A DNA stretch of 35,696 nucleotides. It comes from a virus. The notes beneath the pieces were generated by a model. The model had not been told where the DNA came from, did not search any database, and worked only from the letters and a program-made list of their open reading frames with translations. Location of the stretch: the IMG/VR virus record IMGVR_UViG_3300034065_000148; one strand, 5' to 3'. The position numbers and the translations under genes are program-made. Positions 1 through 32,652 of this stretch are shown one piece after another; within the stretch, counting starts at the first letter, position 1, and each line of letters starts with the position of its first letter.

Positions 1-127
1 CCAGGTTCTTTCCCGAATTCTGGAGCTAGCTCTATTGCTAGATTATATCTTAATGCTTTGTTATATCCCGGAGGCAAAGAGACAAGTGATGTAAGTAATG
101 AAAAGTCTGATAACTGCTTCCAAGACC
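1..127. repeat. Terminal direct repeat, identical to 35570-35696 (circular-assembly overlap or terminal redundancy)
   Basis: Base-by-base comparison of the two window ends: 127/127 identical. Confidence 0.97.
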
Positions 128-578
128 ACATTTGAAAGTTATTTGCCTGCAATGGAATTGGCCAAAAATAAAGCGTTGCATATGGAAACGTGTAATTAAC
201 AAATAGCTTAGTTGGAATATTGCTCTGAGTATTAGGAACCGGCAAAGCTGCCCATTGATCTTGATTTATGATTTCAATCTCAAGATTAAAAACACTTGAA
301 CCTTGAACCTGTTGCCAAATGGCATTCTCTATCTTTTGAGGCCTAGCCGTATTAAAATCAGGAGCTCCAGTGCCCATTTGATAAGACTGTTGGCCAGCTA
401 CAAGTGGAAATGTCTCATTTACCTTAGCGTAAATAAGCATATTCTGAGTCGACCAACTATCCACCATATCGTTTAGATATTGCAGAGCAGTTGTTGACTC
501 GTTAGCCGAAGGGACCTCGTTTCCAGCGAGGACGCCTATCAGCCTAAGAGATTGTGTTATAAGATCAAGAGTAGTCAT
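1..578 (-). CDS. Head-to-tail adaptor, P22 gp4-like. This is the 5' part of the gene; it continues in frame into 35437-35569, giving 236 aa in total.
   Basis: ATG at 578-576 shares one base with the TAA of the upstream gene (TAATG). Manual translation MTTLDLITQSLRLIGVLAGNEVPSANESTTALQYLNDMVDSW... parallels the P22 gp4 N-terminus (DLVRAALRKLGV...DDLEAMMAEW). 578 + 133 nt = 711 nt = 237 codons across the junction. Confidence 0.7.
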   Translation of the reverse strand, partial: MTTLDLITQSLRLIGVLAGNEVPSANESTTALQYLNDMVDSWSTQNMLIYAKVNETFPLVAGQQSYQMGTGAPDFNTARPQKIENAIWQQVQGSSVFNLEIEIINQDQWAALPVPNTQSNIPTKLFVNYTFPYATLYFWPIPLQANNFQMWSWKQLSDFSLLTSLVSLPPGYNKALRYNLAIELAPEFGKEP

Positions 579-784
579 TACTCAGCTTTCTTTTTTCTAG
601 AAACCTTCTCAACAACAACTTCCTCTGAATCATCTTTCTTTTCTCCCTCATAACCCCAATCTTTTCCTAAATTCTTATGGTCTTGTTCGTTATGAACAAT
701 CTTGCAAAACTTTTTAAGTTCTTTCTCACCTTCTACTGCGTGAGGATTATAATCCTTGTGGTAAACTGATCTCGGATAACTCAT
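578..784 (-). CDS. Hypothetical 68-aa K/E-rich protein
   Basis: ORF track. Its stop overlaps the adaptor start, and it overlaps the 3' end of the glycosyltransferase gene by 38 nt. Confidence 0.55.
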   Translation of the reverse strand: MSYPRSVYHKDYNPHAVEGEKELKKFCKIVHNEQDHKNLGKDWGYEGEKKDDSEEVVVEKVSRKKKAE

Positions 785-1553
785 TATGCTTCTCCTTTGT
801 AAGTACTTTAAATTTTTCGGTTGTGTCTTTGATTTGGTTTAACGCATCTTCCATACTAAATATGGCATCTACTTTTACTGGTTCTCCTCCACCTTTTAAC
901 CAACTACCAATGTTTCCAGAATAAGGTGTCGGATTAAAATCCCAATGTGTAAGCGAAGCTTCTGGGTCTAGAAATATCTTTCCACCGCTTTCCACCCATT
1001 CCCTACAGAAGTATAAATCTTCTCCGTATAGATGCCCGTCGACAAAAGGCATTTTAAAGAACGCATGACATTTATGACCATTTTGAATTGTTAAATCTCG
1101 TTCCGGATATTTATCTAGCATCGTTTGAAATACTTTACGTGACAGTGCTAAAAACCCAGTAGGAATTCCTTGGACGCCAAGCAAGCCATCTTTAGTCATT
1201 GGAACGCCCAATAATTCTGGATCTGGAAGCCATGCAATAGGGTATTGTTCACCGTTACGTTTATAGCGATATGCTCCGCCAACAAAGTCAACGTCACGAT
1301 GTGCAAGCTTTAAAAGATCACCTAAGTTCCATGTGATATCTGAATCGACAAATACAAGCCTATCAAATCCACTATCCATAAACTCTGTGGCTAATTGGTT
1401 TCTCGCTTGAGCAATACCTGCTCCAGAAGATAGGCAATTGATCATGAGGTGATCGCCAGCCCCGATTGCAACGGTTAGTTCGTTGAACAAACAGTTCATT
1501 GTTCGAACAGGAATTTTACCGTCGTAAACGGGGATGGCTACACATATCTTCAT
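747..1553 (-). CDS. Glycosyltransferase (GT-A/GT2-like), paralog of the 7746-8705 gene
   Basis: N-terminal MKICVAIPVYDGKIPV Rossmann strand and the acidic VFVDSDITW (DxD-type) motif. The ATG overlaps the upstream TAA (TAATG). Confidence 0.7.
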   Translation of the reverse strand: MKICVAIPVYDGKIPVRTMNCLFNELTVAIGAGDHLMINCLSSGAGIAQARNQLATEFMDSGFDRLVFVDSDITWNLGDLLKLAHRDVDFVGGAYRYKRNGEQYPIAWLPDPELLGVPMTKDGLLGVQGIPTGFLALSRKVFQTMLDKYPERDLTIQNGHKCHAFFKMPFVDGHLYGEDLYFCREWVESGGKIFLDPEASLTHWDFNPTPYSGNIGSWLKGGGEPVKVDAIFSMEDALNQIKDTTEKFKVLTKEKHNELSEISLPQGL

Positions 1554-1870
1554 TAGTTAGATTGAACTCCAAGATTATGCAAAAGAGTATAAACTTGGTT
1601 AAGACCTGCAGCTAAAGTTGAAATACCATTACCGATTAACGTGCTATTATACGTACTCGTTAACGCTTGGATTCCAGTTGTAGCTGAAGCAGTTCCTCCA
1701 GAGGAGTCAGTTAATTGAGCAAGACCTGTTCCTTGAACAACAGGGGTTTTGCCATAAAAACCGACATAATCTCCAGAAGATTGACCAACGCTAAAACCAT
1801 CAGTGCTTATTCCCGAACCGTATCCGGGTGTAACGTCTTTATTACTCGTAATATCGTTCTGCAAAGCCAT
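1553..1870 (-). CDS. Small S/T/G-rich protein directly after the coat gene (possible capsid-associated or decoration protein)
   Basis: 105-aa ORF with an AAGG-type RBS after the coat attenuator. Contains the GFYGKTPVVQ motif. The function is inferred from position only. Confidence 0.6.
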   Translation of the reverse strand: MALQNDITSNKDVTPGYGSGISTDGFSVGQSSGDYVGFYGKTPVVQGTGLAQLTDSSGGTASATTGIQALTSTYNSTLIGNGISTLAAGLNQVYTLLHNLGVQSN

Positions 1871-1886
1871 ACCCTAACCTTTCTTT

Positions 1887-1907
1887 AAAAGGGCCCCGAA
1901 GGGCCCC
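1887..1907 (-). terminator. Intrinsic terminator/attenuator hairpin after the coat gene
   Basis: Minus strand reads GGGGCCC-UUCG-GGGCCC-UUUU: a 6-bp all-GC stem, a UUCG tetraloop and a short U run. It lies 20 nt after the coat stop codon. Confidence 0.6.
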
Positions 1908-1926
1908 AGAAGTTAATAACTTTAAA

Positions 1927-3150
1927 TTACCCTTGAATTCTGCAAGCGAGTTCTTGATAGATGGTTTGCCATCCATAGAGCACATCAATTCTGCAAGGAT
2001 GTTGGTCATTGACGATGTCATATGCCCGAACAACCCGTAAGCTCATTCCAGCTCTTGGATCACTTGCACGTGCAGCCATTTCAACTCCGCCCGGCAATTC
2101 AAGATCTGCCATACCGAGACAGAATGCATCTCTATGGTAAGCCACGTTTACAGGACTAACAACGTTTGCATAGCTAGATGCCGATGCGAACGTTAGAACA
2201 GCAGAACTCTGAGCAACTCCGGCAGTAACGTTCTGATAAGGACCAGAGGTTACAATTGCAGGGCTGATCGGAATCGTTGCAGCTCCACCGCTCGAACTTA
2301 CAGCGCTGGTAACAACGAATTGTTTCAATGCTCCAGTTGATTGGAATGAAACAGGGTTGACTGCATAAACGTTAGCAAAAGTTACTACGTCACCGGGCAA
2401 GAGTAAGTTAGTTACACTTGTAGTCCAGTTGTTAGTAATAATGTTTGATCCGGTTTGAGCAGTAGCGCAGTTAGAAATACCAACTCCACCAAGAGCTCCA
2501 ATTGTGTGTGCTTGAACGTTCTGGTCCATGCGGAAATTCATGCCAAGAGCGCGTCCCATTAAGCCCTTGTCGTATTGTTCAGCGAGTTTAGGACCATCTT
2601 GAAACAATCCTTTTAATGCATCAACAATACTTGCTTCAGCAGCTGGGTTAATAATACAGCTAATCTTGTCATCCATGGGGCAAGCATTTTCTGCCAGCTT
2701 TTGTTTAGCTTGCAAGAAAAGCAATGCAGTTGCCGGAGTTGTTCCAGGAGCTCCTACAAAGTTTGAAACACCGGTAGGAACTTGTGTTAAACCATCGTAA
2801 TCAATTTTATTGGCTAGAGCGTTGATTGCGGGTAGCACATAACGATCACTGAAATCATCAACGTTCAATAACATATCTTTCGATGTGAATTGAAAGTCAA
2901 CGTGTTGCTGAGTTCCGAGAGTCAAAGCGACTGACTGGTCGGTGATATCTTGCAATTGAAGAGCAGGGCCCGAAACAGTCGTATAACGAACTGGTTTACG
3001 AATGTTGATTACAGAACCAATTTTGGCTCCAGCATTTGCAAAAGTGTCATCATATTCACGATTAACACCTTTTGCGAAACCTAATTCGTTCTCTAGTATG
3101 CGAAGGGCTTCCTTCGTAATCATACTAATACTTAATAAACTATTAGACAT
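1927..3150 (-). CDS. Major capsid (coat) protein, P22-coat-like family
   Basis: N-terminus ITKEALRILENELGFAKGVNREYDDTFANAGAKIGSVINIRKP is typical of the P22_CoatProtein-type family. GAGGAG RBS. Position is after the scaffold gene. Confidence 0.9.
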   Translation of the reverse strand: MSNSLLSISMITKEALRILENELGFAKGVNREYDDTFANAGAKIGSVINIRKPVRYTTVSGPALQLQDITDQSVALTLGTQQHVDFQFTSKDMLLNVDDFSDRYVLPAINALANKIDYDGLTQVPTGVSNFVGAPGTTPATALLFLQAKQKLAENACPMDDKISCIINPAAEASIVDALKGLFQDGPKLAEQYDKGLMGRALGMNFRMDQNVQAHTIGALGGVGISNCATAQTGSNIITNNWTTSVTNLLLPGDVVTFANVYAVNPVSFQSTGALKQFVVTSAVSSSGGAATIPISPAIVTSGPYQNVTAGVAQSSAVLTFASASSYANVVSPVNVAYHRDAFCLGMADLELPGGVEMAARASDPRAGMSLRVVRAYDIVNDQHPCRIDVLYGWQTIYQELACRIQG

Positions 3151-3153
3151 ACA

Positions 3154-4089
3154 TTATCTCCTCATAGAGTTTTGTTTAATTTGCTCGTTCCTAATCCTCT
3201 TATAATCTTCGTAACTCAAGTTAGGATCGTTAAGATCCTTTGAGCTAGAAGCGCCACGAGTTCTAACGGGCGTAACAGGCTTCGGGGTTCGAACAGTTTT
3301 TGGACTCTCAGAGGTTTTAGATTCAACTTTGACGAATTTAGCTTCAAGCTTACCCATCTCTCTTGCAGCTTGCAAAGGAGGTAAACTGCAAATGCGTTTA
3401 AATTCCTTTGGGTTATTGGCAAGTTCATACATCATTTCAGGCCCATGATCTGAATCTAAGATAGACTCTTGAACTGCAATCGACATGGGAATGGTCGACA
3501 CATTATCAAGAGCATCGTCGAAATCGTCATGAGATTCTTTAAACGCTGAAACTCTAGCGTTATGAGTATTAAACTTGGTTTGAACCTCTGACTTCGCTTT
3601 TTCTTGAACTTCTTTTTGTCTGGCAGCCTGCATCTTTGCTTCAGCTTTCCAGTCAACAAGCGCTTCAAGGTATTCATCGTGTGTAGCGAAATCAGTAGCC
3701 TTTGGTCTAAGATATGTATCTTTTATGGGTTCTGTCTTTGGAGCAGGGCTTTGAGTTTGAACACGCAGAGCCTCTTGGCGCCAGTATTCTTTCTCTTGTT
3801 CAAGCTTGACAATCTTTTTTTGAAACCCACCTTTTTTCTTAGGAGGCTTTGGCTTTTCTTCGTCTGGTTTTGATTCTAATTCCTCATCGGTTTCTTCATC
3901 AGTTTCTTCTGGCTCTGAAGGTTCCGGTTCGTCGGTAGGTTCATCTACCGATGCATCAGTAACCGGGTCCGTTACCGGCTCTTTTACTTCAGGCTTTTTA
4001 TCATCAACTGGTTTTGTTACAGCCAGATCGCCTAACGCAGCGGTCACAGTAGCTTCATTATCAGTGGACGACTTGATTGTTACGGTCAT
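3154..4089 (-). CDS. Scaffolding protein
   Basis: 311 aa with an acidic, low-complexity N-terminal half (PEPSEPEETDEETDEE) and a charged helical C-terminal half. Located between the portal and coat genes. Confidence 0.65.
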   Translation of the reverse strand: MTVTIKSSTDNEATVTAALGDLAVTKPVDDKKPEVKEPVTDPVTDASVDEPTDEPEPSEPEETDEETDEELESKPDEEKPKPPKKKGGFQKKIVKLEQEKEYWRQEALRVQTQSPAPKTEPIKDTYLRPKATDFATHDEYLEALVDWKAEAKMQAARQKEVQEKAKSEVQTKFNTHNARVSAFKESHDDFDDALDNVSTIPMSIAVQESILDSDHGPEMMYELANNPKEFKRICSLPPLQAAREMGKLEAKFVKVESKTSESPKTVRTPKPVTPVRTRGASSSKDLNDPNLSYEDYKRIRNEQIKQNSMRR

Positions 4090-6197
4090 TGCATTGCTCC
4101 TTGGGGCGCAGCTTGTGGGCCAGCTCCAACAGGTTGTTGATTAGTTGGAGGCGCAGCGTTTCCGCCAGCTCCGCTATTATTTAATAAGCTCTCTTGTTGT
4201 TGCCGATCGATATCAAGTTGACGATCTATGTGGTCTTGCTCAGCTTGGAATATTGTGGCCGCATCTTTTTGGTCATGTTTCATGAGCTCAATTGCTAGTT
4301 GAGTTTTCTGTTCCATTGCAGCGATGCGCTCTTTAGACATTAGCTCTAAACTCTTATTCTCAATGACCTTAGTGCTGGCATCCAACTCTTGAGATAGTTT
4401 TTGGATCATCGTACTCATCTGGGTCATTTGTTGCTTAGCTTGGGGTGGGATTGGATCGCCTTCGTCATCTGATGTAATTTGAGGAGGAAGTGAACGCTTG
4501 ATTCTATCTGCAATTTCAGAAGACCCAGGCCAATCCATGTTCCTTACTAATATATCTCCAGCCATTTGCATTAACTGTGGCGCAGCCTTTGTAAGATCAA
4601 GCATCGATCCAACAGCCTCTTGACGCTTAGTCTGAAAACTTGGTCCAGTATCTACGGTGCAATCGTATGTTCCAGCGTCTAAGAAATGAGTTTTCTTATC
4701 GCCGCCAGGGCCCGGGATAAGTTGATTGATCTCTTGCATTTTAACTTCGCCATCTTCACCTATTATCCTCACCGCTTGAGCTGAGCTATAAATTTCAGGA
4801 ATCCAATTGATTAATATTCGACCTGCATGTCTTAGGGAGCGTGAGAGATTATCTATAAAATGAAAGTTAGAAATCTGTGATTGACTGTTACGTCTTTGAA
4901 TTGCAATGCCTGATTGTTCATTGGATCTGTTGCCCAAAGATGCGTCATAAATTCCAGTAACAGCTTTCAACTCGTCAGAAGCTTGTTGCCTCTCAACTGT
5001 AATGGACTGAACCTGAGGTTCGAACTGAGTTCTAGCCGGAGGTGGAACTGCGATGCCTCCGATAGTCTTTGGCTTATATTGAAGGAATGAGTGGTTTTTA
5101 AAGTTGGCTGACTTCCAAATATCTTCATAGCCTTCAAACTGTCCTTCAGCTCCAATGAACGGAGCTTTAGGTGCAAGGGCTATCATTTCGGTCGCAGCAG
5201 AAGCATAGTAGTTGTACATACGCTGTGGGTCTTTAGCGTTACGGACTATGCCGGATAATATCCTTCGACCTTCGACTATGAATTCCTCGCCTATTACCGG
5301 GATGATTGGAATCCATTGGCCATGAATCTCTGTCTTATCTAGAACTTCAATACCGTTAATCTTTGCCCATTTAATCTTAGGAACTAAAGATTTACGCTCT
5401 GAAATTACTCTTAAACCATCAGGTAATTTATCTGGCAGATCTTTTTTCTCTACACACCTTTTGTCAGATAGTAAGCATAGTTCTACTTCTTCCCAAACCT
5501 TATAGTAATACTCTGCAACACGCACTGCTTCGGCATTGATGAACATGCCTTGGTTATCGCCTAACGATGACCAATCACTCATCCCAGATAGCTTTGCATC
5601 AGGGAATTGAACCTGGAACTCATCACGAGACATATCGTCAAAGATGAATCCCCACTGGCAATCTGAACCATCAGGCTCTTGGTAAAAAGGATCCAGGTAA
5701 ACTGAAAATCTATCTTTAATACGTTTGATTAATATTTCTTGTTGGAACGACATAGGATCGGAGTAATCAGTAACGATCCTAAAATAACCGATGCCAGAAG
5801 ACGCTGCGTATTCAAAAGCTGTGTCGTATGCGATATCAGCATGAGAATTGTATTCAATGTGTCTTATCATTCCCTGTAGTATTTTTGCGGTATCAACTGT
5901 GGCTTTAGAATCGCATGGGTTAACTTTGATAGAAGGTCTATTTTGACGTTGATCATTTGTGACTTGTCTTATGAATTGGGGCAAACGATTGACTGTTAAA
6001 CAAGGACGCATATCTAGCATCCGTTGATTTCTGATTTCCATTGGCCATTGTTCGCCGGTCAGGAACTGCTGATCTTCTAATTCTTGACGTCTATTTTCTG
6101 TTTCGGCTTCGACGGCGACTTGAAAGCGTTGCTTAGCAAGCTTTATTAACTCCTCATCACTGGAGGGATCTAAATCACGTTTTTCATTTAAGTCCAT
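4086..6197 (-). CDS. Portal protein (P22 gp1-like)
   Basis: 703 aa. Motifs QWPMEIRNQR...RPCLTVNRLPQFIRQVTNDQRQNRPSIKVNP are typical of P22-type portals, and the C-terminal barrel region is Q-rich. ATGA overlap with the scaffold gene. Confidence 0.9.
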   Translation of the reverse strand: MDLNEKRDLDPSSDEELIKLAKQRFQVAVEAETENRRQELEDQQFLTGEQWPMEIRNQRMLDMRPCLTVNRLPQFIRQVTNDQRQNRPSIKVNPCDSKATVDTAKILQGMIRHIEYNSHADIAYDTAFEYAASSGIGYFRIVTDYSDPMSFQQEILIKRIKDRFSVYLDPFYQEPDGSDCQWGFIFDDMSRDEFQVQFPDAKLSGMSDWSSLGDNQGMFINAEAVRVAEYYYKVWEEVELCLLSDKRCVEKKDLPDKLPDGLRVISERKSLVPKIKWAKINGIEVLDKTEIHGQWIPIIPVIGEEFIVEGRRILSGIVRNAKDPQRMYNYYASAATEMIALAPKAPFIGAEGQFEGYEDIWKSANFKNHSFLQYKPKTIGGIAVPPPARTQFEPQVQSITVERQQASDELKAVTGIYDASLGNRSNEQSGIAIQRRNSQSQISNFHFIDNLSRSLRHAGRILINWIPEIYSSAQAVRIIGEDGEVKMQEINQLIPGPGGDKKTHFLDAGTYDCTVDTGPSFQTKRQEAVGSMLDLTKAAPQLMQMAGDILVRNMDWPGSSEIADRIKRSLPPQITSDDEGDPIPPQAKQQMTQMSTMIQKLSQELDASTKVIENKSLELMSKERIAAMEQKTQLAIELMKHDQKDAATIFQAEQDHIDRQLDIDRQQQESLLNNSGAGGNAAPPTNQQPVGAGPQAAPQGAMQ

Positions 6198-6211
6198 TGT
6201 TCCCCTAAAAA

Positions 6212-6237
6212 TTACACGATCTGTGTAACTCTTACAC
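6212..6237 (-). promoter_or_regulatory. Three alternating half-sites TTACAC / GTGTAA / TTACAC in the terL-portal spacer (mutually exclusive hairpins or a protein-binding site)
   Basis: TTACAC at 6212-6217, GTGTAA at 6223-6228 and TTACAC at 6232-6237. The middle element is complementary to both flanking elements. Confidence 0.35.
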
Positions 6238-6285
6238 TATTTCTAGTATCGGGAACATTTCAATAGAAATATACGAGACTTGGGG

Positions 6286-7746
6286 CTAGCCCATCCACGA
6301 GGAACTTTTGCTGCCAGTTTGATGATAGCTCTTATGATTTCTCTTTAGGTTCTTAGATGAAACTTCGTAGGCAAATGATAAAGCTAAAGCATCGGCTCTA
6401 TTAGGTGATGGAACTCCACGAGACTTCATATCTTTCTTTGATTCTAATTGTAGCTTACCGTCTAATCTCGGCACTGTTTCTGGAGCTATGATCTCATCGT
6501 GAAGTACTGGATCTTTGGGAATAGATCCACCTTCTTTGAGCCAATCTCTTAAGGACTTCCACATTTCTGCGCGCTTATTAAGGCATCCTTCATCCGCAGA
6601 ACGCTCTGAAAACCAGACTAGTTGCCAGTTCCGCTTAAGAGTTCGGCCAACACTAACAACGCCAGTCCCGTAACCGCCATCAATAAAAACAGCATCAGCT
6701 TCTTCTTCGTCCTCAAATGTAGCTAAAATATTAGCGATGAATACGTCATTATCATTCTTTGCCAGAGTTTTTAAGATTCTAAAAGAGAGACCTTGCCTGA
6801 GCCCTATGACGAGTTCGTCATCCCCTTCCCAGGCAGGGTCTAGAGTAAGGATCTTGGGTGCCCAATTATAGGAAGATTCGCTTAACTCTTTACCGTAGGC
6901 TTTATCAACATCTTCGGTAGAAATATACTGTTTAAACGAGGTTGTTGGGAATATTCCTCGAACTCTTACTTTAACGAAGTCAGAGTCTAAACCGTAGTCT
7001 TCGATCCACTTTTCTATTTGGGCTTTGTTGGTTCCTTCGACATCACGAGAGTCAATTTGACGACATTTCCAACGATGCTTAAAACGGGCGAAACAATCTC
7101 TGAACCTTCCATTATTTCTCGTAGGGTTTCCATAGGCAATCCAGATGATTTCAGTATTCTCGTCAGTGAGCGCGCCCTCAGTAACTTCCCAGACTTTATC
7201 GGCAATGGAAGATGCTTCGTCAAAGATAACGACGATTCGCTTTCCTTTGTTGTGTAATCCGGCAAAAGCCTCAGTATTGTTGATCGACCACGTGACGGCA
7301 TCAGTCCTCCAGGATCTTTCGTGACTCTTATCAACGCTAGCAACAGCAGTCGCGGTGACGTTAAACCAGTGTGAATTGATGGCTAACCTAAACCATTTTG
7401 ATATCTCTGGCCAGGTTTTAGTTCTTAGCTGCGTCTCTGTATTGGCCGTTACAACTATCTTTGTATCTTCACACGTACTCATAGCCCAATGGATGATCTG
7501 AGCAATGTCTGCTGACTTCCCAATCCCGTGTCCAGAAGCTACTGAGATAAGTAACGGGCTAAACCTAGTCTTTGGATCTGATAGGTGCTTTTGAATATCA
7601 AGGCCGACTTCACGCTGCCATTCCCTTTGGCCTTTAGAATCTTGTAGATCCTTTTCGCCCCAGGGATAAGCCATCTCAGCAAAGCCAACTGGATCTGTTT
7701 CGTAGTAACTAATTTCTTCGACTAACTCGTCTTCGAGGTCAGACAT
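6286..7746 (-). CDS. terL: Terminase large subunit
   Basis: Walker A SGHGIGKS and Walker B VVIFDEAS. C-terminal nuclease-type region. Sits upstream of the portal gene. Confidence 0.9.
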   Translation of the reverse strand: MSDLEDELVEEISYYETDPVGFAEMAYPWGEKDLQDSKGQREWQREVGLDIQKHLSDPKTRFSPLLISVASGHGIGKSADIAQIIHWAMSTCEDTKIVVTANTETQLRTKTWPEISKWFRLAINSHWFNVTATAVASVDKSHERSWRTDAVTWSINNTEAFAGLHNKGKRIVVIFDEASSIADKVWEVTEGALTDENTEIIWIAYGNPTRNNGRFRDCFARFKHRWKCRQIDSRDVEGTNKAQIEKWIEDYGLDSDFVKVRVRGIFPTTSFKQYISTEDVDKAYGKELSESSYNWAPKILTLDPAWEGDDELVIGLRQGLSFRILKTLAKNDNDVFIANILATFEDEEEADAVFIDGGYGTGVVSVGRTLKRNWQLVWFSERSADEGCLNKRAEMWKSLRDWLKEGGSIPKDPVLHDEIIAPETVPRLDGKLQLESKKDMKSRGVPSPNRADALALSFAYEVSSKNLKRNHKSYHQTGSKSSSWMG

Positions 7747-8705
7747 TAAAACAAAGGCTTCTCTAGTTTAAATATATTCCCTCGGTCACGCATTCCTTGA
7801 ATATGTGCAAGTTGATCTTTGTAGCTTGCATCAAGCGTTTCAAATAGTTCTTTGGGGCACATCTTTGGCAACGTATCTTGATGGCAGCGCTTAAACTTCT
7901 TACCAGATCCACAGAAGCATGGGAGATTGCCGGGCCATTTGGCAAACGGGTGTGGTTCAAGTTCTTTCTTAGATAAGTCTGAGTGATCTTCGTTAACGTT
8001 TAGCTTATGATAAGACTGATCTAACGACTTAGTAGCGCTATACGTATGACGTCCAACATGATCAACAACACAATGTTTATTCATATAAAGCTTAAGACCT
8101 AGCTTACGAGCCTCATGGCAAAAGCCCCAATCTTCAGTGTTTAGATTTCCAGTCTCATCGATCTCAACGGGGAAGAACATTCGCTCATATTCAAGTTCTT
8201 GTTTCATTGGATCTCTGTGATGATATTTCTTCATATGCGGAGCCATCTCTTCAAACACATCAACGTCGATCTTTAGAAAGCCTGTTGGAATATTTAATAC
8301 CTCAAACTCACCAGATTCATCAGAGACTTTATCGAAATATTCAAAAGCAGAGTATTCCCCTACAGGAGTATGCTCATTAATTATTGGCCCATAATTAAGA
8401 CGAATCGGAAACACTTTGAGAGGATAAGTTCCTCCAACAATTCTTTTCTTAGATCTTAAGAGATGAAATATCTGCTTTGGCTCCCATTGAATATCAGCGT
8501 CTATAAACAAAAGCTTATCGTATTTACTTTTCATCGCAAACTCAGCACAACGATTTCTAGCCCACGACACAAGGTTCCTTGGCTCATTAAAGAGCGTCAC
8601 TTCAATTCCAGCTTCGTGAAAGTATGGAATAGATTTGATATACGAATGCAGATATTGAATTGGAACGTTACCGTCGAAAATAGGAGTCGCAATTAATAAT
8701 TTTAT
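7746..8705 (-). CDS. Glycosyltransferase (GT-A/GT2-like), probably initiated at a non-canonical ATA that overlaps the TerS stop
   Basis: The track ORF (GTG at 8600) lacks the conserved N-terminus. The in-frame upstream sequence IKLLIATPIFDGNVPIQYLHSYIKSIPYFHEAGIE aligns with MKICVAIPVYDGKIPV of the paralog. There is no ATG/GTG/TTG between the TAG at 8723-8721 and 8600. Also has the FIDADIQW acidic motif. Confidence 0.6.
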   Translation of the reverse strand: MKLLIATPIFDGNVPIQYLHSYIKSIPYFHEAGIEVTLFNEPRNLVSWARNRCAEFAMKSKYDKLLFIDADIQWEPKQIFHLLRSKKRIVGGTYPLKVFPIRLNYGPIINEHTPVGEYSAFEYFDKVSDESGEFEVLNIPTGFLKIDVDVFEEMAPHMKKYHHRDPMKQELEYERMFFPVEIDETGNLNTEDWGFCHEARKLGLKLYMNKHCVVDHVGRHTYSATKSLDQSYHKLNVNEDHSDLSKKELEPHPFAKWPGNLPCFCGSGKKFKRCHQDTLPKMCPKELFETLDASYKDQLAHIQGMRDRGNIFKLEKPLF

Positions 8706-9070
8706 TTTGCCCTTCGCTTTCTAGCGCTCGCTAAACGATCTGCGAGGCCATTCTTAAAATCATGTGTTAGTTCTTGTTTATCAGACTGCTTTAAATACTG
8801 CTTCCCAAGCCAAATAAGCATAACCCTATCACCCGACATCGCAAGTTCATATTGTTTGCGTCTTAAACTTACGCGCCCCTTTGAGCCCTTTTGGTCGGAA
8901 TACTCCGCATAAGTCAGCCCAAATTCAGATTTACAGCGCCTTGAAATGGTATCGTCTGATATTTTTAATATGTCGCAAACTTCAACTTTTGTGCATTGAA
9001 TGCCGAGCAAATCTTCGACTAACTCCCAATTAATTTTAATCTCTGGAGCTCCCATTTTCTTCTTAGCCAT
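8702..9070 (-). CDS. terS: Terminase small subunit / HTH DNA-binding packaging protein
   Basis: 122 aa. HTH-like CDILKISDDTISRRCK and the LIWLGKQYLKQSD motif common in small terminases. Located upstream of terL. Confidence 0.65.
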   Translation of the reverse strand: MAKKKMGAPEIKINWELVEDLLGIQCTKVEVCDILKISDDTISRRCKSEFGLTYAEYSDQKGSKGRVSLRRKQYELAMSGDRVMLIWLGKQYLKQSDKQELTHDFKNGLADRLASARKRRAK

Positions 9071-9527
9071 GTCTGGCCATTCTTCTATAAAAACTAGCGA
9101 GAGATTTGTATCGTTTTAAATCTTCTATCGTATAACCGCCATTGGCATATTTATCGGCTGCCCATTTACGAATAGGTTTCAATCTTTTCAATAGAAGTTT
9201 TGCTTGTTCTTTGACTGTATTTACGCCGGAATGATAATTAGTAAGCTTTTCTCTACCAATTTCTTTAATAAGCTCGCGTTCTATATCAAATGCGTCTGAT
9301 TCTAAAAGATCCTTGGCATAAACGAAGTATTTCACCTCGAAGCCGTCATTAATAATTTCTCTTATCCTTAGGGTCTTTCTCGGGTTATCAGAATTCCCTC
9401 TTTTGGCAGCGGGAACGTGTTGTTTCATTCTTTTCCCTTTGCCCTTGCCTACATAAAACACTTCCCCATTTCGAGGGTCTATCAACTGATAGACATAATA
9501 TTCTTTAGATTTTTCCTTCAGATCCAT
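9063..9527 (-). CDS. GIY-YIG domain nuclease-like protein
   Basis: YYVYQLIDPRNGEVFYVGKGKGKRMKQH matches the GIY-(x10)-YIG layout. It is the first gene of the late operon. Confidence 0.7.
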   Translation of the reverse strand: MDLKEKSKEYYVYQLIDPRNGEVFYVGKGKGKRMKQHVPAAKRGNSDNPRKTLRIREIINDGFEVKYFVYAKDLLESDAFDIERELIKEIGREKLTNYHSGVNTVKEQAKLLLKRLKPIRKWAADKYANGGYTIEDLKRYKSLASFYRRMARHG

Positions 9528-9630
9528 TTAAACGTGTCGTACACCTCCAAACTCAAAAAGCTCCAAAGGGTGTACTCCCCCCCTATAATTATTATATCGG
9601 CTAACTAGACTATTTATGTAAAGATTAATA
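9528..9630. promoter_or_regulatory. Divergent AT-rich control region between the late operon and the DUF5675-like gene
   Basis: Perfect TATAAT at 9584-9589 (+). TTTACA and GATATAAT boxes on the minus strand. 7-bp inverted repeat GTACACC (9539-9545) / GGTGTAC (9569-9575). Confidence 0.4.
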
Positions 9631-10047
9631 ATGATCTTGACCTTACAACGGACTGATTATTTGTCTGTAGGAATCTTCGGGACATTATCAAACGAAGACT
9701 CAACACTATTTCTCGCAACTGCCGAACATGCATACCCGGTCCAGCCAGCAGATGCGACATCTCTTTCTACTACATATTCGCCAAAGGTACCGAGCGGTCA
9801 ATATACCTGTATTTTAGGCCAGCATCAGCTATCCCGTGGAGTGCCGTTTGATGCCTATTGTTTGCAAGATGTCCCTGGTTGCACTGGGATATTGCTTCAC
9901 GTCGGAAATTACCCACAGACCGATAGTGAGGGATGCATCCTCTTAGGTCTTAGTAGAGTTGGGTTTATGATTCAGAGATCTCAAGACGCGTTTAAATTGT
10001 TTATGACAACTATGGCTGGGCAGCCATTTCAGTTAATAATTAGTTGA
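9631..10047 (+). CDS. DUF5675-like protein with a YkuD (L,D-transpeptidase)-like H-x-GN...S-x-GC-I-L motif
   Basis: The SGQYTC...VPGCTGILLHVGNYPQTDSEGCILLG pattern is characteristic of the phage/bacterial DUF5675 family. Confidence 0.65.
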   Translation: MILTLQRTDYLSVGIFGTLSNEDSTLFLATAEHAYPVQPADATSLSTTYSPKVPSGQYTCILGQHQLSRGVPFDAYCLQDVPGCTGILLHVGNYPQTDSEGCILLGLSRVGFMIQRSQDAFKLFMTTMAGQPFQLIIS

Positions 10048-10135
10048 CCGTGAGATAAACTGAGAAAAGAACGAGAATCATTCCTGCCGCCCCTATCACC
10101 CAAATGATGCCATCTGGATTAAGGGTATGGGCCAT
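10040..10135 (-). CDS. Possible 31-aa single-TM peptide (below the track cutoff)
   Basis: Manual translation MAHTLNPDGIIWVIGAAGMILVLFSVYLTVN. The ATG lies 2 nt after the stop of the 208-aa gene. Confidence 0.35.
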   Translation of the reverse strand: MAHTLNPDGIIWVIGAAGMILVLFSVYLTVN

Positions 10136-10137
10136 CT

Positions 10138-10764
10138 TTATCCGCCAGTTGTTGGCAGTTCTAGCCATACCAGGTTTGAAGCGCAAGAGACTGTGGTAGT
10201 TGAAACAGTGCCCATAACTCCTAAGAAGTTGCCAGGCTCGACTATCCAGGAACCATCAACAAGCTCTTCTGACTGACCGCCCATTAAAGAGGTGGCCGTA
10301 GATGGTTGAGGAGTAACGATTTGAGTGCTGTTAAATGGGACTAAAGAGTTTGTAAGGTTTCCGGCAAGCCCAGTTAGCGCCGTTCCAAAAGCAAAAGCCT
10401 TGGCAACGCTTGTCGGGATTGTGGCCGTTATAACGCGGCTTATGGGTGTTGACCCAGAGGTAATAGTATTTGAGGTTGCGTAAACCCAAACAAAAGAGCC
10501 TGGGCTTACACTTGAAGCAGCCGCTGTGGTGATTAAAACCGTCGCCCTTTGAATGACCATTATTCGGCCTGAATTACTTGGGTTATAGATCCCAATTATT
10601 GGCTGCGCGGTTGCGGAGAGTCCCGTTGCTGTGGCATTTGCGGCGACAAGGGCTGTGCTTACGCCGCCGAAACAAAATAGGTTACCAAGAGCGCATTGCT
10701 CGAAAAAACTGCCATTCCATTTTGTGTCGTAGTTTAATGTTATTGGATTTACATATGCTGCCAA
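10138..10764 (-). CDS. Hypothetical beta-rich S/T/A-rich protein (cargo next to the integrase)
   Basis: 208-aa ORF with a TTG start preceded by AGGGGG. No recognisable motif. Confidence 0.6.
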   Translation of the reverse strand: MAAYVNPITLNYDTKWNGSFFEQCALGNLFCFGGVSTALVAANATATGLSATAQPIIGIYNPSNSGRIMVIQRATVLITTAAASSVSPGSFVWVYATSNTITSGSTPISRVITATIPTSVAKAFAFGTALTGLAGNLTNSLVPFNSTQIVTPQPSTATSLMGGQSEELVDGSWIVEPGNFLGVMGTVSTTTVSCASNLVWLELPTTGG

Positions 10765-10919: not shown

Positions 10920-11786
10920 TCACTTCTTAAGAATTGAATCAAGCTTAGCGGATATCGCGGTCACGGCTTCGAGCCTGGCAGAATCATCGAGCAAGGCGTA
11001 GCGGTCGGTCGTTTGCGTTGAATGATGGTTCAGGAGCTTTCCGATTACTTTCATATCAACTTTATTGCTCATGCCAACAGTTGCAAAAGTTCTGCGAAAA
11101 TCTCTCAGCCAAAGGTCCTCGCATCCAGCTTCTTTCCTTATTTTCCTAAACAGGTAACCAGGTGAAGGAATACCAAAAATAAGGCCATCCGATCGTTTCG
11201 GCAACTTATGGATCAATTCCATTATCTTTGGTGGGAGTATGACCGATTCAGGGTCTCCCGTAGCTTCTGTGCTTTTGCCATCAAAGACGAGTACTCCGAA
11301 GCCCGAAGACTCTGTAAACTCCGACCATCTAGAACGTTCAATAGAGCGAGGGCGAGCTCCCGTGAAGAGGAGTGTGTAGAGAAAAGTGATTTCAAGAGGT
11401 TGTGTTTTATACAACTTATCGAGGATTTCCCCGACTTTTTTGATTTCCGTTTCTGAGGCATAACGTCGCCTTTTTCTCTCAGTAAAGTGCTTAATGCCAA
11501 TGACCGGATTAAAGCCGCCGGCATTCCATTCTCGCTCGATACTGAATTTATAGAGTTTGGATATGATTTCGAGTAACCTATTGCCTGTGACTGGGGTTTT
11601 TGCAAATGATTTATGGAAGTCTCTAATTTGAACGCGAGTTACCGATAGGTAATCAATTGCTCCGAAAACTGGTTTTATATGATTTTTGTATTTGGCTCGA
11701 ACTTCTAGCGCGTGCCCTGATAGGTTGAATCTTGGACTATCCCAGTGATCTGCGAAGCATTTGGCAAAGAGCTCATCGATAGTCAC
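10920..11786 (-). CDS. int: Tyrosine recombinase / integrase (short, XerC/D-like size)
   Basis: Catalytic-region motifs TGARPRS, LRDFRRTFAT and LLNHHSTQTTDRYA (nucleophile Tyr). GTG start. Confidence 0.85.
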   Translation of the reverse strand: MTIDELFAKCFADHWDSPRFNLSGHALEVRAKYKNHIKPVFGAIDYLSVTRVQIRDFHKSFAKTPVTGNRLLEIISKLYKFSIEREWNAGGFNPVIGIKHFTERKRRRYASETEIKKVGEILDKLYKTQPLEITFLYTLLFTGARPRSIERSRWSEFTESSGFGVLVFDGKSTEATGDPESVILPPKIMELIHKLPKRSDGLIFGIPSPGYLFRKIRKEAGCEDLWLRDFRRTFATVGMSNKVDMKVIGKLLNHHSTQTTDRYALLDDSARLEAVTAISAKLDSILKK

Positions 11787-16069: not shown

Positions 16070-16368
16070 TTAGACATTTAATTAAACCACTACGAGAACA
16101 AATTTTAGTTGAACTAGCAGACCCAGAAGAGAAAACTTTCGGTGGAATTATTATTCCCGAAACTGCTCAAGAGAAACCAAGAAAAGCTACTGTGATTGCA
16201 GTAGGAGAAGGTTGGCATAATGAGAAAAACACTAAAGTTATTCCTCTAGGAGTAAAGCCTGGGGATAAGATTTTAATCGGCACAAATATGAAGGGCACAG
16301 ACTTAACTTTAAGAGGGAAGAAATACGAAATGATTAGAGAGAATTATATTTTTGCGGTGCTAACATGA
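16066..16368 (+). CDS. groES: Co-chaperonin GroES (Cpn10) homolog
   Basis: IKPLREQILVE...EEKTFGGIIIPETAQEKPRKATVIAVGEG...LGVKPGDKILIG...YEMIRENYIFAVL is collinear with bacterial GroES, including the mobile loop. GTG start with GTGA overlap. Confidence 0.85.
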   Translation: MIRHLIKPLREQILVELADPEEKTFGGIIIPETAQEKPRKATVIAVGEGWHNEKNTKVIPLGVKPGDKILIGTNMKGTDLTLRGKKYEMIRENYIFAVLT

Positions 16369-17042
16369 GTGAATATCAATTCACAAATGCATGGTTTTCT
16401 CCACTAGTTCAAAGTGTGTGGAACATGATTGTTCCAATGGATGCACCGAAAAGATTCTTAGAGATTGGATCTTTTGAAGGTCGAAGTACGACATGGTTTA
16501 TAAACAAATTTGCAAGACAATGGGACATAGAAGTCCATTGCATTGATTCATGGGCAGGCTGTTCCGATAATGCATTAATGGAAGTTGATTTCAATGCATC
16601 GGAAAATAGATTTAAACACAATATGGAAATAGCTACAAAAAATAATCCATTTAAAACAGATCTTCATGTTCATAAAGGTACTTCAGAAAGTGAATTAATA
16701 AGGCTTTGCGCGAATGGATATCTTAATTATTTTGATGTCATTTACGTCGATGCAAATCACGAAGCTGCGGAGTGTTTGTCTGATGCCGTTCTCGCATGGA
16801 AGCTTTTAAAAATGCACGGGCTTATGATTTTTGATGATTACATTTTTGCAGTTCCCAATAGACCAAGGTGGGATGTTCCTAAAACTGCGATTGATGCTTT
16901 CTTAAATATTCACTGTAACGATGCGCATTTGATAAACGCTCCAAATCAGCAGGTATATGTGAAGAAAATTAAAGAGGGTGATTTGGTTTGGGCCCATAAG
17001 GCTCCAGTGTCTAAATCAGGTTCAAAACCTGAGGGAAAATGA
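16365..17042 (+). CDS. Class I SAM-dependent methyltransferase (O-methyltransferase/Methyltransf_24-like)
   Basis: FLEIGSFEGRST (motif I-like), IYVDANHE, and GLMIFDDY. Confidence 0.65.
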   Translation: MSEYQFTNAWFSPLVQSVWNMIVPMDAPKRFLEIGSFEGRSTTWFINKFARQWDIEVHCIDSWAGCSDNALMEVDFNASENRFKHNMEIATKNNPFKTDLHVHKGTSESELIRLCANGYLNYFDVIYVDANHEAAECLSDAVLAWKLLKMHGLMIFDDYIFAVPNRPRWDVPKTAIDAFLNIHCNDAHLINAPNQQVYVKKIKEGDLVWAHKAPVSKSGSKPEGK

Positions 17043-17532: not shown

Positions 17533-17819
17533 TGGCAAAGAAGTACGTGATAGTAAGAACTTATTCGGCTGGAGTATTTGCCGGATATCTTAAAGCAAGA
17601 AAAGGGCAAGAAGTTACTTTAACTAATGCTAGGCGCCTTTGGTATTGGAAAGGTGCTGCTTCATTGAGTCAACTCGCGGTCGATGGAGTTTCTTCCCCTC
17701 AAGAATGTAAATTTCCCGCTGAAGTTTCTAATGTTGAATTATTACAAGCGATAGAGATTTTAGACGTTACTAAAAAGGCTCAAAAATCTATTGCATCGGT
17801 GGCGGTATGGAAGAGTTAA
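17532..17819 (+). CDS. Conserved-looking small phage protein of unknown function
   Basis: 95-aa ORF, VIVRTYSAGVFAGYL...NARRLWYWKGAASLSQLA. GGAG RBS. Confidence 0.65.
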   Translation: MAKKYVIVRTYSAGVFAGYLKARKGQEVTLTNARRLWYWKGAASLSQLAVDGVSSPQECKFPAEVSNVELLQAIEILDVTKKAQKSIASVAVWKS

Positions 17820-18073
17820 AAAATGACGGCTCCGGCTCCGGCTACGGCTACGGCGACGGCTACGGCTCCGGCTACGGCTCCGGCTCCGGCTACGGCTCCG
17901 GCTCCGGCTACGGCTACGGCTCCGGCTCCGGCTACGGCTCCGGCTACGGCGACGGCTACGGCTCCGGCTACGGCTACGGCTCCGGCTCCGGCTACGGCTA
18001 CGGCGACGGCTCCGGCTACGGCTCCGGCTACGGCTACGGCTCCGGCTCCGGCTACGGCTACGGCGACGGCTGA
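17807..18073 (+). CDS. Gly-Tyr-Ser-Asp dipeptide-repeat protein, MEELKND + (G-[YSD])40-G
   Basis: ATG preceded by GGTGG, overlapping the upstream gene by 13 nt. The stop falls exactly at the end of the repeat array. The choice of frame is uncertain. Confidence 0.5.
   Translation: MEELKNDGSGSGYGYGDGYGSGYGSGSGYGSGSGYGYGSGSGYGSGYGDGYGSGYGYGSGSGYGYGDGSGYGSGYGYGSGSGYGYGDG
17828..18070. repeat. 243-bp perfect hexanucleotide array built only from GGCTCC, GGCTAC and GGCGAC
   Basis: 40 hexamers plus a final GGC. About 70% or more GC inside an AT-rich genome. Long ORFs are present in two plus frames and one minus frame. Confidence 0.95.
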
Positions 18074-22614: not shown

Positions 22615-23856
22615 ATGCCTATATTGATCATAACGAGTTTAATGTTTTTGACCTTCATTTTATTTCCGAATTGTACAAACCGAGTTTTCTACGAATCTGA
22701 CATTGGCCTAGGACTTATAACGTTATTGCTAGCCTGGAGATTAAAAAAGATCCATTGGTCAGTGGGCCTCATGTTCTTAATCTCGGCGAGTTCCGTTTTA
22801 CTACTCATGAACAATCAAGACATTTACCAACATACTCTTCCAGAAGGCTATCACCTTAAAATCGCTGCAATAACTGTTTCCACGTACATCACATTATTGC
22901 TATTTGGAATGTTACCTTTGTTGCTGAACAAAGATGCGTTTAAAAATATATTCACCATCCTTTTTGCTATAGCTGTAATTGACTCAATTTGGATGTTAGT
23001 TAGATCTGTAATTTATGGCCCAGATCAGTGCTACGCAATGATGTCAAACTCTGCAATTGATGCGTCTTTTATTGCGTGTTTTATTCCTATAGCATTGTCG
23101 TTTTTTAAAAAAAGAGAAATAATGTGGTTAGAAGGGATATTTTTACTAATCCCTATGGTTTTGGCAATTATAGTTTCAAAGAGTTCGACTGGTATTGCAG
23201 GGATTGGAATCGCCATCGCCTCTTATTTATTTATGGAATACGGGCTTAAATCACTTAAAATAATAGCTCCGTTGGCTTTGGCAATATGTGGAGGAGCTTA
23301 CATTTACCTCAAAGATGAGTTACTAAATCCTAATGGTCGTTATGGAATATGGAAAGGCTCACTTGATTTCTTCTTAAAAGAAACACACATATTAATTGGA
23401 TCTGGAATTGGAACATTTTTTATGTGGGGACCAGAGATTCAGATGCATAATAACAATTCTCTGGGGAGTAATGGTCAGCAGGCTTTATTTATTTGGATGC
23501 ATAACGATTGGCTTCAAGTTCTTTTTGAAATGGGAATTATTGGATTAGCTGGCCTTATAATTCTATATTCATGTTTACTTCTGAGTTCATGGAAGAAGAA
23601 AAATGCTCTATTTCCGATGCTATGTACTTACGGATTTATAGGGCTTACACAAATGCCACTAAGAGCTTTTCCGTTTCAAGTTTTGGGAGCTTGTTTGATA
23701 ATTATTAGTTTTAAATTAGAAAATTCTTATAACTGTCCATTCAATAGAGGGAACAATAGACCCTGCGCTTATAATCGCTATAGTTCCGGCATTAACAGCG
23801 CCTTGAATTTTAATTGTATTTGCCGAAGTATTTGCAGGCGCATATATCCCAGTTAG
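22615..23856 (+). CDS. O-antigen ligase/polymerase-like (Wzy_C domain) integral membrane protein
   Basis: About 10 or more hydrophobic segments. Periplasmic-loop motif NGRYGIWKGSL...GSGIGTF...IWMHNDWLQVLFEMGIIGL is typical of the O-antigen ligase/Wzy family. The last 44 codons are antisense to the fibre gene. Confidence 0.7.
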   Translation: MPILIITSLMFLTFILFPNCTNRVFYESDIGLGLITLLLAWRLKKIHWSVGLMFLISASSVLLLMNNQDIYQHTLPEGYHLKIAAITVSTYITLLLFGMLPLLLNKDAFKNIFTILFAIAVIDSIWMLVRSVIYGPDQCYAMMSNSAIDASFIACFIPIALSFFKKREIMWLEGIFLLIPMVLAIIVSKSSTGIAGIGIAIASYLFMEYGLKSLKIIAPLALAICGGAYIYLKDELLNPNGRYGIWKGSLDFFLKETHILIGSGIGTFFMWGPEIQMHNNNSLGSNGQQALFIWMHNDWLQVLFEMGIIGLAGLIILYSCLLLSSWKKKNALFPMLCTYGFIGLTQMPLRAFPFQVLGACLIIISFKLENSYNCPFNRGNNRPCAYNRYSSGINSALNFNCICRSICRRIYPS

Positions 23857-32187: not shown

Positions 32188-32652
32188 TTATAATCTCCTT
32201 GACCAGATTGTTTCGGCCTTTTCGTAACCCATATCTTGGAATAAATTGCCGTATTCAAACCAAGGCTTTGCATGATGGGTTATTGTTACAACATTATCTT
32301 TCTTAAGTTCTTCATCACACCATTTTAAAAACTCCTTACCGATGCCTCGATAAGGCTTTCGAACGTATAAAATATCTTGAGATGCAACGACTGTGTTTTT
32401 ATAATGAAGATGTTTATCAACTATGAAAAAGGCGTAGCCCATAAGAACGGTTTCCTTAAACTCTTCATTCAAGGGTTGTCTGATAGTGAAACATCGAAGC
32501 TTGCCCATTTTCTCTAAAGCTTCATATTTTGACCACTCCATATCGATAGGAATATCTTTATAGTGACCGACCTCTTCCCAATGCTCATGACGAAGCACAG
32601 GCTCTATCTCTGCTCTGCAATCACTTAACGTTTCAACTTGGAACTTTGGCAC
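32188..32652 (-). CDS. GNAT-family N-acetyltransferase
   Basis: Acetyl-CoA motif-A-like YVRKPYRGIGKEFLKWCDEELKK, about 150 aa. GTG start. Confidence 0.6.
   Translation of the reverse strand: MPKFQVETLSDCRAEIEPVLRHEHWEEVGHYKDIPIDMEWSKYEALEKMGKLRCFTIRQPLNEEFKETVLMGYAFFIVDKHLHYKNTVVASQDILYVRKPYRGIGKEFLKWCDEELKKDNVVTITHHAKPWFEYGNLFQDMGYEKAETIWSRRL

Follow-up and report, generated by a model that had tools for sequence, protein, structure and literature searches.

As far as searchable papers show, virion glycans made by the phage itself have so far been demonstrated for mycobacteriophages, whose glycosyltransferases (GTs) and O-methyltransferase modify capsid and tail tube proteins, according to the summaries given in two papers that cite Freeman et al. 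2023 for this work (PMC11600133, PMC11256854). These glycans alter the recognition of the virion by antibodies (PMC11256854, PMC11600133). Here we describe two GT genes, GT1 and GT2, placed among the head and packaging genes of a P22-like podovirus, the 35,696-bp IMG/VR record IMGVR_UViG_3300034065_000148 (the whole of which is referred to as the window). Virion glycosylation by phage GTs is already known; in the present phage group and gene arrangement we know of no earlier description.

The likeness of this locus to the mycobacteriophage systems (Che8 in cluster F1, Corndog in cluster O) is one of gene content, with Ardmore gp87 appearing only as a distant fold match. Those systems often combine several GTs with an O-methyltransferase; the window encodes two GTs and a Methyltransf_24 protein, and its relative L004 encodes three GTs. 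The mycobacteriophages are siphoviruses of actinobacterial hosts and their GT genes are not split between packaging and head genes; the candidate acceptor in the window is a separate small fibre or decoration protein. An earlier reading of the window (the original prediction) had drawn on these phages as an example of virion glycosylation by GTs of the structural module. The precedent stands, but the analogy is a loose one: GT genes of cluster F1 lie near the 3' end of the genome, outside the structural module (PMC11256854), and cluster O phages carry three tandem GT genes downstream of an O-methyltransferase gene (PMC11600133).

Other described systems resemble the locus in structure or in setting. 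A197 of Sulfolobus turreted icosahedral virus (STIV), a tail-less archaeal virus, is the best structural match of both enzymes and is likewise a small, soluble, virus-encoded protein with which the DxD and GED-x-x-F motifs align; however, it is only 14-16% identical, has no SEC-C tail such as GT2 possesses, and shows no linkage to a head-fibre gene. We know of no established acceptor for A197. Directly after it rank the protein-glycosylating enzymes ColGalT1 (GLT25D1), the GT domain of LH3, R699 of mimivirus and A64R of PBCV-1 (Paramecium bursaria chlorella virus 1), the last of which acts on the viral major capsid protein. They share the GT-A fold and DxD-Mn chemistry, but at a template modelling (TM) score of ~0.4, with 10-14% identity and no Pfam GT25 match. 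Among the structural genes of the phage there is also one for an Asp/Asn beta-hydroxylase-like oxygenase, although a hydroxylase-GT pairing on the collagen model is rejected, since this AspH-like gene does not co-vary with GT1; the window is also without collagen-like repeats. Finally, gtrABC cassettes and phage O-antigen polymerases are sugar-transfer systems of temperate P22-like phages, and the window has a Wzy_C-like gene of its own. Gtr proteins are membrane-embedded, have their genes near the integrase and are made in lysogens, whereas the models of GT1 and GT2 predict soluble, globular proteins, and both genes are locked into the late operon; GtrABC-type families did not turn up among the window proteins scanned.

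We put at about even the chances that this phage glycosylates its virion surface, with p105, a 105-aa protein encoded next to GT1, as the prime candidate acceptor of GT1. If so, a very large group of uncultured P22-like podoviruses would join the phages with glycosylated capsids, GT1 and p105 would constitute a defined enzyme-substrate pair, and a function would be assigned to the family phrog_1574 and to its structural relative A197.

Two paralogous GT-A-like enzymes in a late operon

Both GT open reading frames (ORFs) lie on the minus strand at the positions originally predicted (Table 1), as the ORF list confirms. Their paralogy is evident from BLASTP (27% identity over 218 aa, E 2e-21) and from profile-profile comparison with hhalign (99.9% probability, E 8e-35), and the common N-terminus and the alignment of the DxD regions (VFVDSDITW in GT1, LFIDADIQW in GT2) are likewise borne out. 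So too is translational coupling within the late operon, the stop of p105 and the start of GT1 overlapping as TAATG, as do the stop of GT2 and the start of the large terminase gene (terL). GT2 lies between terL and a gene resembling that for the small terminase (terS), and GT1 follows the P22-type coat gene and p105. The complete minus-strand order is GIY-YIG endonuclease, terS-like, GT2, terL-like, portal, scaffold, coat, p105, GT1, a 68-aa gene, adaptor and gp10-like stabiliser.

AlphaFold2 (AF2) models were built on 38 (GT1) and 31 (GT2) homologues, with a mean predicted local distance difference test (pLDDT) score of 88.4 and 89.8 respectively; they depict soluble, globular proteins without hydrophobic helices. 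The original prediction had proposed a structure search, and Foldseek matched both models to GT-A glycosyltransferases, at a probability of 1.00 for many solved enzymes and with 83 (GT1) and 67 (GT2) matches at E<=1e-3; viral GT-A models were matched as well. A197 (2c0n) was the best match in both cases (E ~5e-9, target-normalised TM score 0.62-0.63). It was followed for GT1 by ColGalT1, the LH3 GT domain, R699 and A64R, and for GT2, A197, ColGalT1, LH3, Mnn9 and ppGalNAc-T were found at E values of 5e-9 to 1e-5. A197 was also the only PDB sequence matched by profiles of the GT family (E 0.013), in an alignment that superimposes the DxD (FLDsD on FLDED, within the segment FLDEDV) and the GED-x-x-F motif.

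Beyond the DxD aspartates, E178-D179 and H203 of GT1 are invariant or nearly so among its homologues, E191-D192 and H216 of GT2 are invariant, and the (G/T)ED and C-terminal His of the two proteins align with each other, making them candidates for the catalytic base and the metal-ligand histidine. The predicted fold and these invariant, catalytic-type residues support identification as GT-A enzymes and, through the conservation of DxD, (G/T)ED and His, indicate that GT1 and GT2 are very probably active metal-dependent glycosyltransferases. The assignment rests on predicted fold and motifs because no GT model in Pfam or NCBIfam reached its threshold with either protein: GT1 had no Pfam match at E<=0.01, and the scores of GT2 fell below the cut-off for PF00535 (Glycos_transf_2; 14.8 against 23.3 bits), PF01501 (Glyco_transf_8; 14.0 against 24.3) and PF03452 (Anp1; 14.4 against 28.8). 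Sequence searches of PDB likewise gave no named GT family above threshold. Both proteins belong to phrog_1574, a family of unknown function (GT2 at 2.5e-30 over profile positions 15-234 of 240, GT1 at 1.1e-17). The SEC-C motif of GT2 matches C-terminal peptides of SecA in PDB and is present in 14 of 31 GT2 homologues.

The family to which GT1 and GT2 belong is large, uncharacterised and mostly viral, with A197 as its nearest solved relative; a search with the GT1 profile at E<=1e-3 gave 14,542 clusters (sequences clustered at 50% identity, each cluster with one representative). Fusions to Methyltransf_24/O-methyltransferase, FkbM methyltransferase or GT-B domains are seen among its longer members. 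In P0286 a GT1-family domain carries a fused methyltransferase domain, with which the stand-alone Methyltransf_24 protein of the window shares 26% identity (E 2e-8); the window protein is a candidate glycan-modifying partner, encoded at a site not adjacent to GT1 or GT2. Three GT paralogues occur in L004 and a methyltransferase stands beside a GT in L097; such a pattern of GTs and methyltransferases is typical of glycan-building toolkits and has its parallel in the cluster O mycobacteriophages.

An accessory p105-GT1 cassette

The GT1 profile retrieved 78 loci from IMG/VR, 61 of them with enough upstream sequence for analysis. The order portal, scaffold, coat, p105, GT1, adaptor and stabiliser is nearly universal among the 78; a P22-type coat gene lies no more than 1.2 kb upstream of GT1 in 59 of the 61, with p105 between the two genes in 40 of those 59. 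Identity in GT1 and identity in the coat protein are correlated (Spearman rho 0.55). Since these loci had been chosen on the GT itself, the sample is biased, and a control was assembled by coat similarity alone, comprising 71 loci with coat identities of 45-61% and at least 1.5 kb of sequence downstream of coat, in which a GT was scored within 1.5 kb. Eight of the 71 carry a GT, 14 carry p105 and 57 have neither; p105 is present in all eight GT-positive loci and in six of the 63 that are GT-negative (Fisher p = 2.8e-7). The first sample had suggested that GT1 is a core gene of the head module, which is ruled out by its presence in only 8/71 control loci. Few of the control loci have a GT, and all of those have p105; GT1 and p105 thus form an accessory cassette, inserted between coat and adaptor.

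p105 as a candidate head fibre or decoration protein

Serine and threonine make up 26% of p105, which is also rich in glycine, and no family in PHROGs or Pfam was matched by it. Positions conserved in its 43 homologues include G25, G29, F38, T42, P43, T60, T71, T73, S76, T85 and G101; there is a conserved N-terminal motif, GQSxxDxVGFYGxTPxxQ, and a C-terminal helix ending in LGL. Long members of the family, of 457-467 aa, are encoded in L214 (2679-4082), L223 (1792-3165) and L224 (5302-6693), with a GT just downstream in L214 and L223. In these proteins the N- and C-terminal segments of p105 flank four to five tandem repeats of ~90 aa that are rich in Ser, Thr and Ala (motif KPT.QAGLGI...RVS..N.LGITF.N.T...ITPTA.E.Y) and are probably immunoglobulin (Ig)-like domains of a head fibre. 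Because this layout is that of a capsid-anchored fibre, we infer that p105 is a minimal head fibre or decoration protein.

Indirect indications of the same role are the position of p105 after the coat gene and the weak match of its profile to the C-terminal half of Shigella phage B2 gp45 (9d82). The latter is a 99-aa homotrimer on the capsid surface, described as a decoration protein and elsewhere annotated as a head fiber protein (PMC11654681). The two are of similar length, 99 and 105 aa, both have a middle rich in Gly, Thr and Ala and a C-terminal helix that ends ...L..L...G(I/L)..., and the C-terminal 50 residues align end to end; however, B2 belongs to the N4-like phages, where the gene for gp45 is beside neither the coat gene of B2 nor a GT. 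The original suggestion that a decoration protein could be the target therefore gains genomic support from the co-occurrence of p105 with GT1 and from the fibre-like family of p105, while p105 itself is a putative acceptor.

A second proposed acceptor, a long Ser/Thr-rich stretch of the coat protein, is rejected. Its richest 30-aa window contains 33% Ser+Thr, which is unexceptional against 37% in the scaffold, 37% in the stabiliser and 30% in the terL product (the whole coat protein has 14.5%), and the segment is present also in relatives without GT1.

Non-canonical start of GT2

GT2 was originally predicted to start at 8705-8703, where the codon is ATA and not ATG, GTG or TTG; the first canonical start is a GTG at 8600, 35 codons downstream. 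With ATA as codon 1, the N-terminus 'IKLL...' requires non-canonical initiation or recoding. Because no canonical codon comes before the GTG at 8600, gene callers report a shortened GT2 of 284-287 aa (for example P0001, 284 aa), and starts of this type are thus systematically mis-annotated. The ATA overlaps the TAA stop of terS (8704-8702), and homologues of GT2 have Met exactly where the window has ATA. In L001 the codon is also ATA (9896-9898), and between the two genomes the first 35 codons have accumulated 13 synonymous changes and one non-synonymous change, a ratio of non-synonymous to synonymous rates (dN/dS) of 0.012. Across the whole gene dN/dS is 0.056, ruling out a decaying pseudogene. 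Because the first 35 codons are under such strong purifying selection, the N-terminus, which contributes strand beta1 and helix alpha1 of the predicted fold, is evidently translated.

ATA is found at the start of GT2 also in L152/L153 (L152 ~1985-1987), an independent lineage at 46% identity, without an overlapping upstream gene and 5 nt after a perfect GGAGG Shine-Dalgarno sequence; other relatives start with ATG, GTG or TTG. This range of start codons suggests selection for weak initiation, and the selected N-terminus, together with the ATA behind GGAGG, makes initiation at AUA with a low dosage of GT2 the best reading of the start. Occurring in two lineages and under strong purifying selection, it would be a clean natural example of initiation at a non-canonical codon, or possibly of recoding. 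P0009/L154 was considered as a third example and rejected, having a TTG two codons upstream, and a DNA pattern search of IMG/VR for the terS/GT2 junction returned a single match, in an unrelated lipoprotein gene.

Recoding would take the form of a TerS-GT2 fusion, with P-site tRNA-Lys slipping by -1 on A-AAA-TAA (8708-8702). In favour of this, the ATA codon overlaps the terS stop, and tRNA-Lys moving from AAA (8707-8705) to AAA (8708-8706) would pair perfectly again, with translation continuing in the GT2 frame from ATA; L001 has the same junction, and 35 codons without a canonical start are nevertheless under selection. Conservation of the junction is, however, already accounted for by the C-terminus of terS, and the arrangement elsewhere speaks for separate initiation: in L152/L153 the ATA has its GGAGG, no upstream gene overlaps it and an in-frame TAG lies four codons before it, and other relatives have a separate ATG, GTG or TTG, in L004 even with a tRNA gene in between. 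The slip is mechanistically possible and is not needed to explain the data, and we regard the fusion as quite improbable.

The junction itself varies between relatives. L004 (2721-2794) and L005 (1115-1188) have a tRNA-Asn(GTT) gene within an 82-nt spacer between terS and GT2, which is absent from the window and from L001, where the genes overlap. This difference would fit a deletion between CAAAATGA-like repeats and a later G-to-A change.

Proposed virion glycosylation and alternative acceptors

The comparisons above show paralogy, predicted fold, conserved motifs, coupling, synteny, the co-occurrence of p105 with GT1 and purifying selection on the N-terminus of GT2, whereas catalytic activity, sugar donor, acceptor and biological benefit are inferred. 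Under virion glycosylation, translational coupling inside the head and packaging operon would cause GT1 and GT2 to be made late, with the head and packaging proteins. GT1 would most likely move a sugar from a nucleotide sugar to Ser/Thr hydroxyls of p105, or of the adjoining capsid surface, in the cytoplasm, while heads are being assembled or beforehand. GT2, with its Zn-binding SEC-C tail and weak AUA start, would most likely add a second sugar or serve a second acceptor at low dosage, and the stand-alone Methyltransf_24 protein may O-methylate the glycan, giving a glycosylated virion surface. Several observations weigh against this. In a distant clade, L076-L094, the GT directly follows coat with no detectable p105, and L002 and L168 carry p105 without GT1, so that p105 is not the sole acceptor across the family. 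More distant homologues resembling GT2 belong to large myoviruses or lie in regions of early or DNA-metabolism genes. What Foldseek finds in common with protein-glycosylating enzymes is the GT-A core (TM score 0.4-0.6), which does not identify the acceptor, and p105 matches B2 gp45 only marginally (E 0.09; 17% probability in hhalign). Because there are near-duplicates among the IMG/VR loci, the counts overstate independence and the effective sample is smaller, and the phage and all its close relatives are uncultured.

In the lytic phase the GTs might instead modify something else, be it a small molecule, a defence factor or a protein of the host, and the head operon would then determine only when and in what dosage they are made. 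No result here identifies the acceptor, the family of 14,542 clusters occupies diverse contexts that include large myoviruses and early regions, and GT1 is accessory, as counter-defence genes often are; the clade with a GT after coat and no p105, and the p105 genes with no adjoining GT, point in the same direction. Strict co-occurrence of GT1 with p105 (8/8 against 6/63, p = 3e-7) is nonetheless hard to explain without a partner in the head, as is the fixed place of GT1 between coat and adaptor across 40-85% identity, and we consider this explanation unlikely, though the strongest of those that dispense with a virion acceptor. Modification of the host envelope (lipopolysaccharide (LPS), O-antigen or capsule) in concert with the Wzy_C-like protein, leading to seroconversion or superinfection exclusion, was the alternative offered by the original prediction. 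Soluble GT-A enzymes do build bacterial O-antigen units, some databases label members of the family 'glycosyltransferase involved in cell wall biosynthesis', the phage is of temperate type with an integrase, and a Wzy_C-family gene is present at 22615-23856 (+; Pfam 6.2e-8). But the 1-nt stop/start overlaps leave the GTs no room for a promoter of their own and, locked in the late operon, they would not be expressed in a lysogen. A distance of ~14 kb separates GT2 from the Wzy-like gene, which is on the opposite strand; for GT1 the distance is ~21 kb within the window, or ~12.5 kb when counted across the circular junction. The proteins scanned yielded no partner of GtrA or GtrB type, and GT1 co-varies with the head gene p105 and not with conversion genes. 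Moreover, the O-antigen polymerases of phages D3 and epsilon15 reportedly seroconvert without phage GTs. With late-only expression and a distant Wzy_C-like gene on the other strand, the envelope is a weak alternative, and we think it rather improbable. The Wzy_C (O-antigen ligase/polymerase family) membrane protein gene lies on the strand opposite to the lysis and tail-fibre genes that flank it, and is likely a lysogenic-conversion moron independent of both GTs.

Glycosylation of a hypermodified base in the phage DNA before packaging, by one or both GTs, would account for the position of GT2 between terS and terL, and short GT2-like homologues adjoin recombination genes in L097. Phage enzymes of the GT-A fold that glycosylate 5-hydroxymethylcytosine (5hmC) exist, and their metagenomic neighbourhoods sometimes contain terminase genes; known clusters include enzymes that make the acceptor base, namely 5mYOX/TET proteins, ThyS-like hydroxymethylases and C5-methyltransferases (bioRxiv 10.1101/2023.12.21.572611). 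When 30 window proteins were compared with Pfam, no 5mYOX/TET, thymidylate-synthase-like hydroxymethylase or C5-methyltransferase was found, the one DNA methyltransferase among them being of N6/N4 type. JGT and other DNA GTs are not among the top structural matches, and there would be no rationale for GT1 being so tightly linked to coat and p105, which together make DNA a very improbable target.

Returning to virion glycosylation, a broader proposal is that environmental P22-like podoviruses share a widespread accessory cassette, comprising a capsid fibre or decoration protein and a dedicated A197-like GT, with extra GTs and a methyltransferase encoded elsewhere and a second GT throttled by a conserved AUA start, and that many uncultured phages of (probably Gram-negative) bacteria consequently bear head glycans of their own making. 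We advance this tentatively, judging its chances to fall somewhat short of even.

Genome context and other features

The window is a complete, circularly permuted genome: a direct repeat of 127 bp at its ends (positions 1-127 and 35570-35696) identifies it as a circular assembly, and the adaptor gene is split across both ends as a result of the permutation. Coordinates of the features discussed are given in Table 1.

Table 1. Features of the late operon, the two glycosyltransferases and the candidate partner methyltransferase in the window
Feature	Coordinates	Strand	Evidence or remark
Adaptor gene (head-to-tail; SU10_adaptor / P22 gp4-like), 5' part	1..578	-	rest at 35440-35696; tblastn with L001 adaptor
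68-aa gene	578..784	-	ORF list; 38-nt overlap with GT1 3' end
GT1, 268 aa	747..1553	-	GT-A-like domain aa 1-220 and C-terminal helix
GT1 DxD, D70-S-D72	1338..1346	-	D70 and D72 invariant in 38 homologues
p105, 105-aa Gly/Ser/Thr-rich protein	1553..1870	-	candidate GT1 partner
GC-rich hairpin GGGGCCC-TTC-GGGGCCC, then TTTT	1887..1907	-	between coat stop and p105 start; read from sequence
Major capsid (coat) protein, P22 type	1927..3150	-	Pfam P22_CoatProtein 4.3e-39; phrog_283 2.5e-79
Scaffolding protein	3154..4089	-	phrog_8865 (head scaffolding protein) 5.4e-45
Portal, P22 type	4086..6197	-	Pfam P22_portal 1.8e-183
Large-terminase-like gene, 486 aa	6286..7746	-	between terS/GT2 and portal; phrog_5902 match
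GT2, 319 aa	7746..8705	-	GT-A-like domain aa 1-225 and C-terminal SEC-C zinc-motif domain
SEC-C zinc-binding motif of GT2, aa 260-276, CFCGSGKKFKRCH	7878..7928	-	Pfam PF02810 1.2e-7, 31.8 bits against cut-off 20.4
GT2 DxD, D69-A-D71	8493..8501	-	invariant in 31 homologues; aligns with GT1 DSD
Small-terminase-like gene, 122 aa	8702..9070	-	upstream of terL; no Pfam match of its own
GIY-YIG endonuclease gene	9527-9063	-	slot upstream of terS
Stand-alone class I S-adenosylmethionine (SAM) methyltransferase (Methyltransf_24 / O-methyltransferase-like)	16365..17042	+	Pfam PF13578 3.2e-16, PF01596 5e-5

Nucleotide comparison by megablast of positions 500-9600 with 50,697 phage genomes gave no match, and protein searches recovered only distant 'hypothetical' homologues, in cyanophages and in phages of Sinorhizobium, Caulobacter, Pelagibacter and Stenotrophomonas. 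The nearest relatives are ~35-kb metagenomic contigs (L001, L004, L007 and L010). A search for the host in bacterial genomes found only mis-binned contigs of metagenome-assembled genomes (MAGs; Bathyarchaeota, Lentisphaerae and others). The integrase that marks the phage as temperate-type is encoded at 10920-11786.

Within the operon, the terL-like protein weakly matches a large terminase (8dkr) and the nuclease domain of P22 gp2 (5c10), and its equivalents in L002 and L153 match Terminase_6N/6C. Pfam SU10_adaptor matches the L004 orthologue of the adaptor gene. Homologues of the 68-aa gene occur in L001-L011, and relatives keep it beside the adaptor gene. Across positions 1-10200, which span the operon, promoter-like sites are not enriched and terminator-like sites are in modest excess (12, against 7.8 in shuffled sequence, standard deviation 2.7). 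The hairpin between coat and p105, which the consensus scan missed, is a possible attenuating terminator that would lower the dosage of p105 and GT1 relative to coat.

The terS gene (L001 9516-9899, L004 2286-2717 in the relatives) looks chimeric by comparison with those contigs. The C-terminal 18 aa of its product (FK.GLADRLA.ARKRRAK), and the DNA encoding them, are common to the Terminase_2 proteins of L001 and L004, whereas the N-terminal ~100 aa are unrelated to those proteins and have no Pfam match. Upstream of it, the slot held by the GIY-YIG gene contains HNH endonucleases in L001 (9079-9528) and L004 (1308-1772); mobile homing endonucleases apparently swap at this one site.

In the tail module, the oxygenase gene mentioned above (32633-33244, -) encodes an Asp/Asn beta-hydroxylase or LpxO-like 2-oxoglutarate (2OG) oxygenase (Pfam PF05118, 1.5e-11), and is followed by a gene for a 154-aa protein (32188-32652, -) with a GNAT-like RGIGKEF motif and no family match. 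Both are kept in L002-L006 and L194, the 154-aa gene having been seen in those few loci only, and they could be further virion- or glycan-modifying enzymes. In the early region, an ORF of 88 aa (17807-18073, +) consists almost entirely of GYGS/GSGYG repeats, a low-complexity sequence of Gly, Tyr and Ser, and adjoins a DUF6948 gene.

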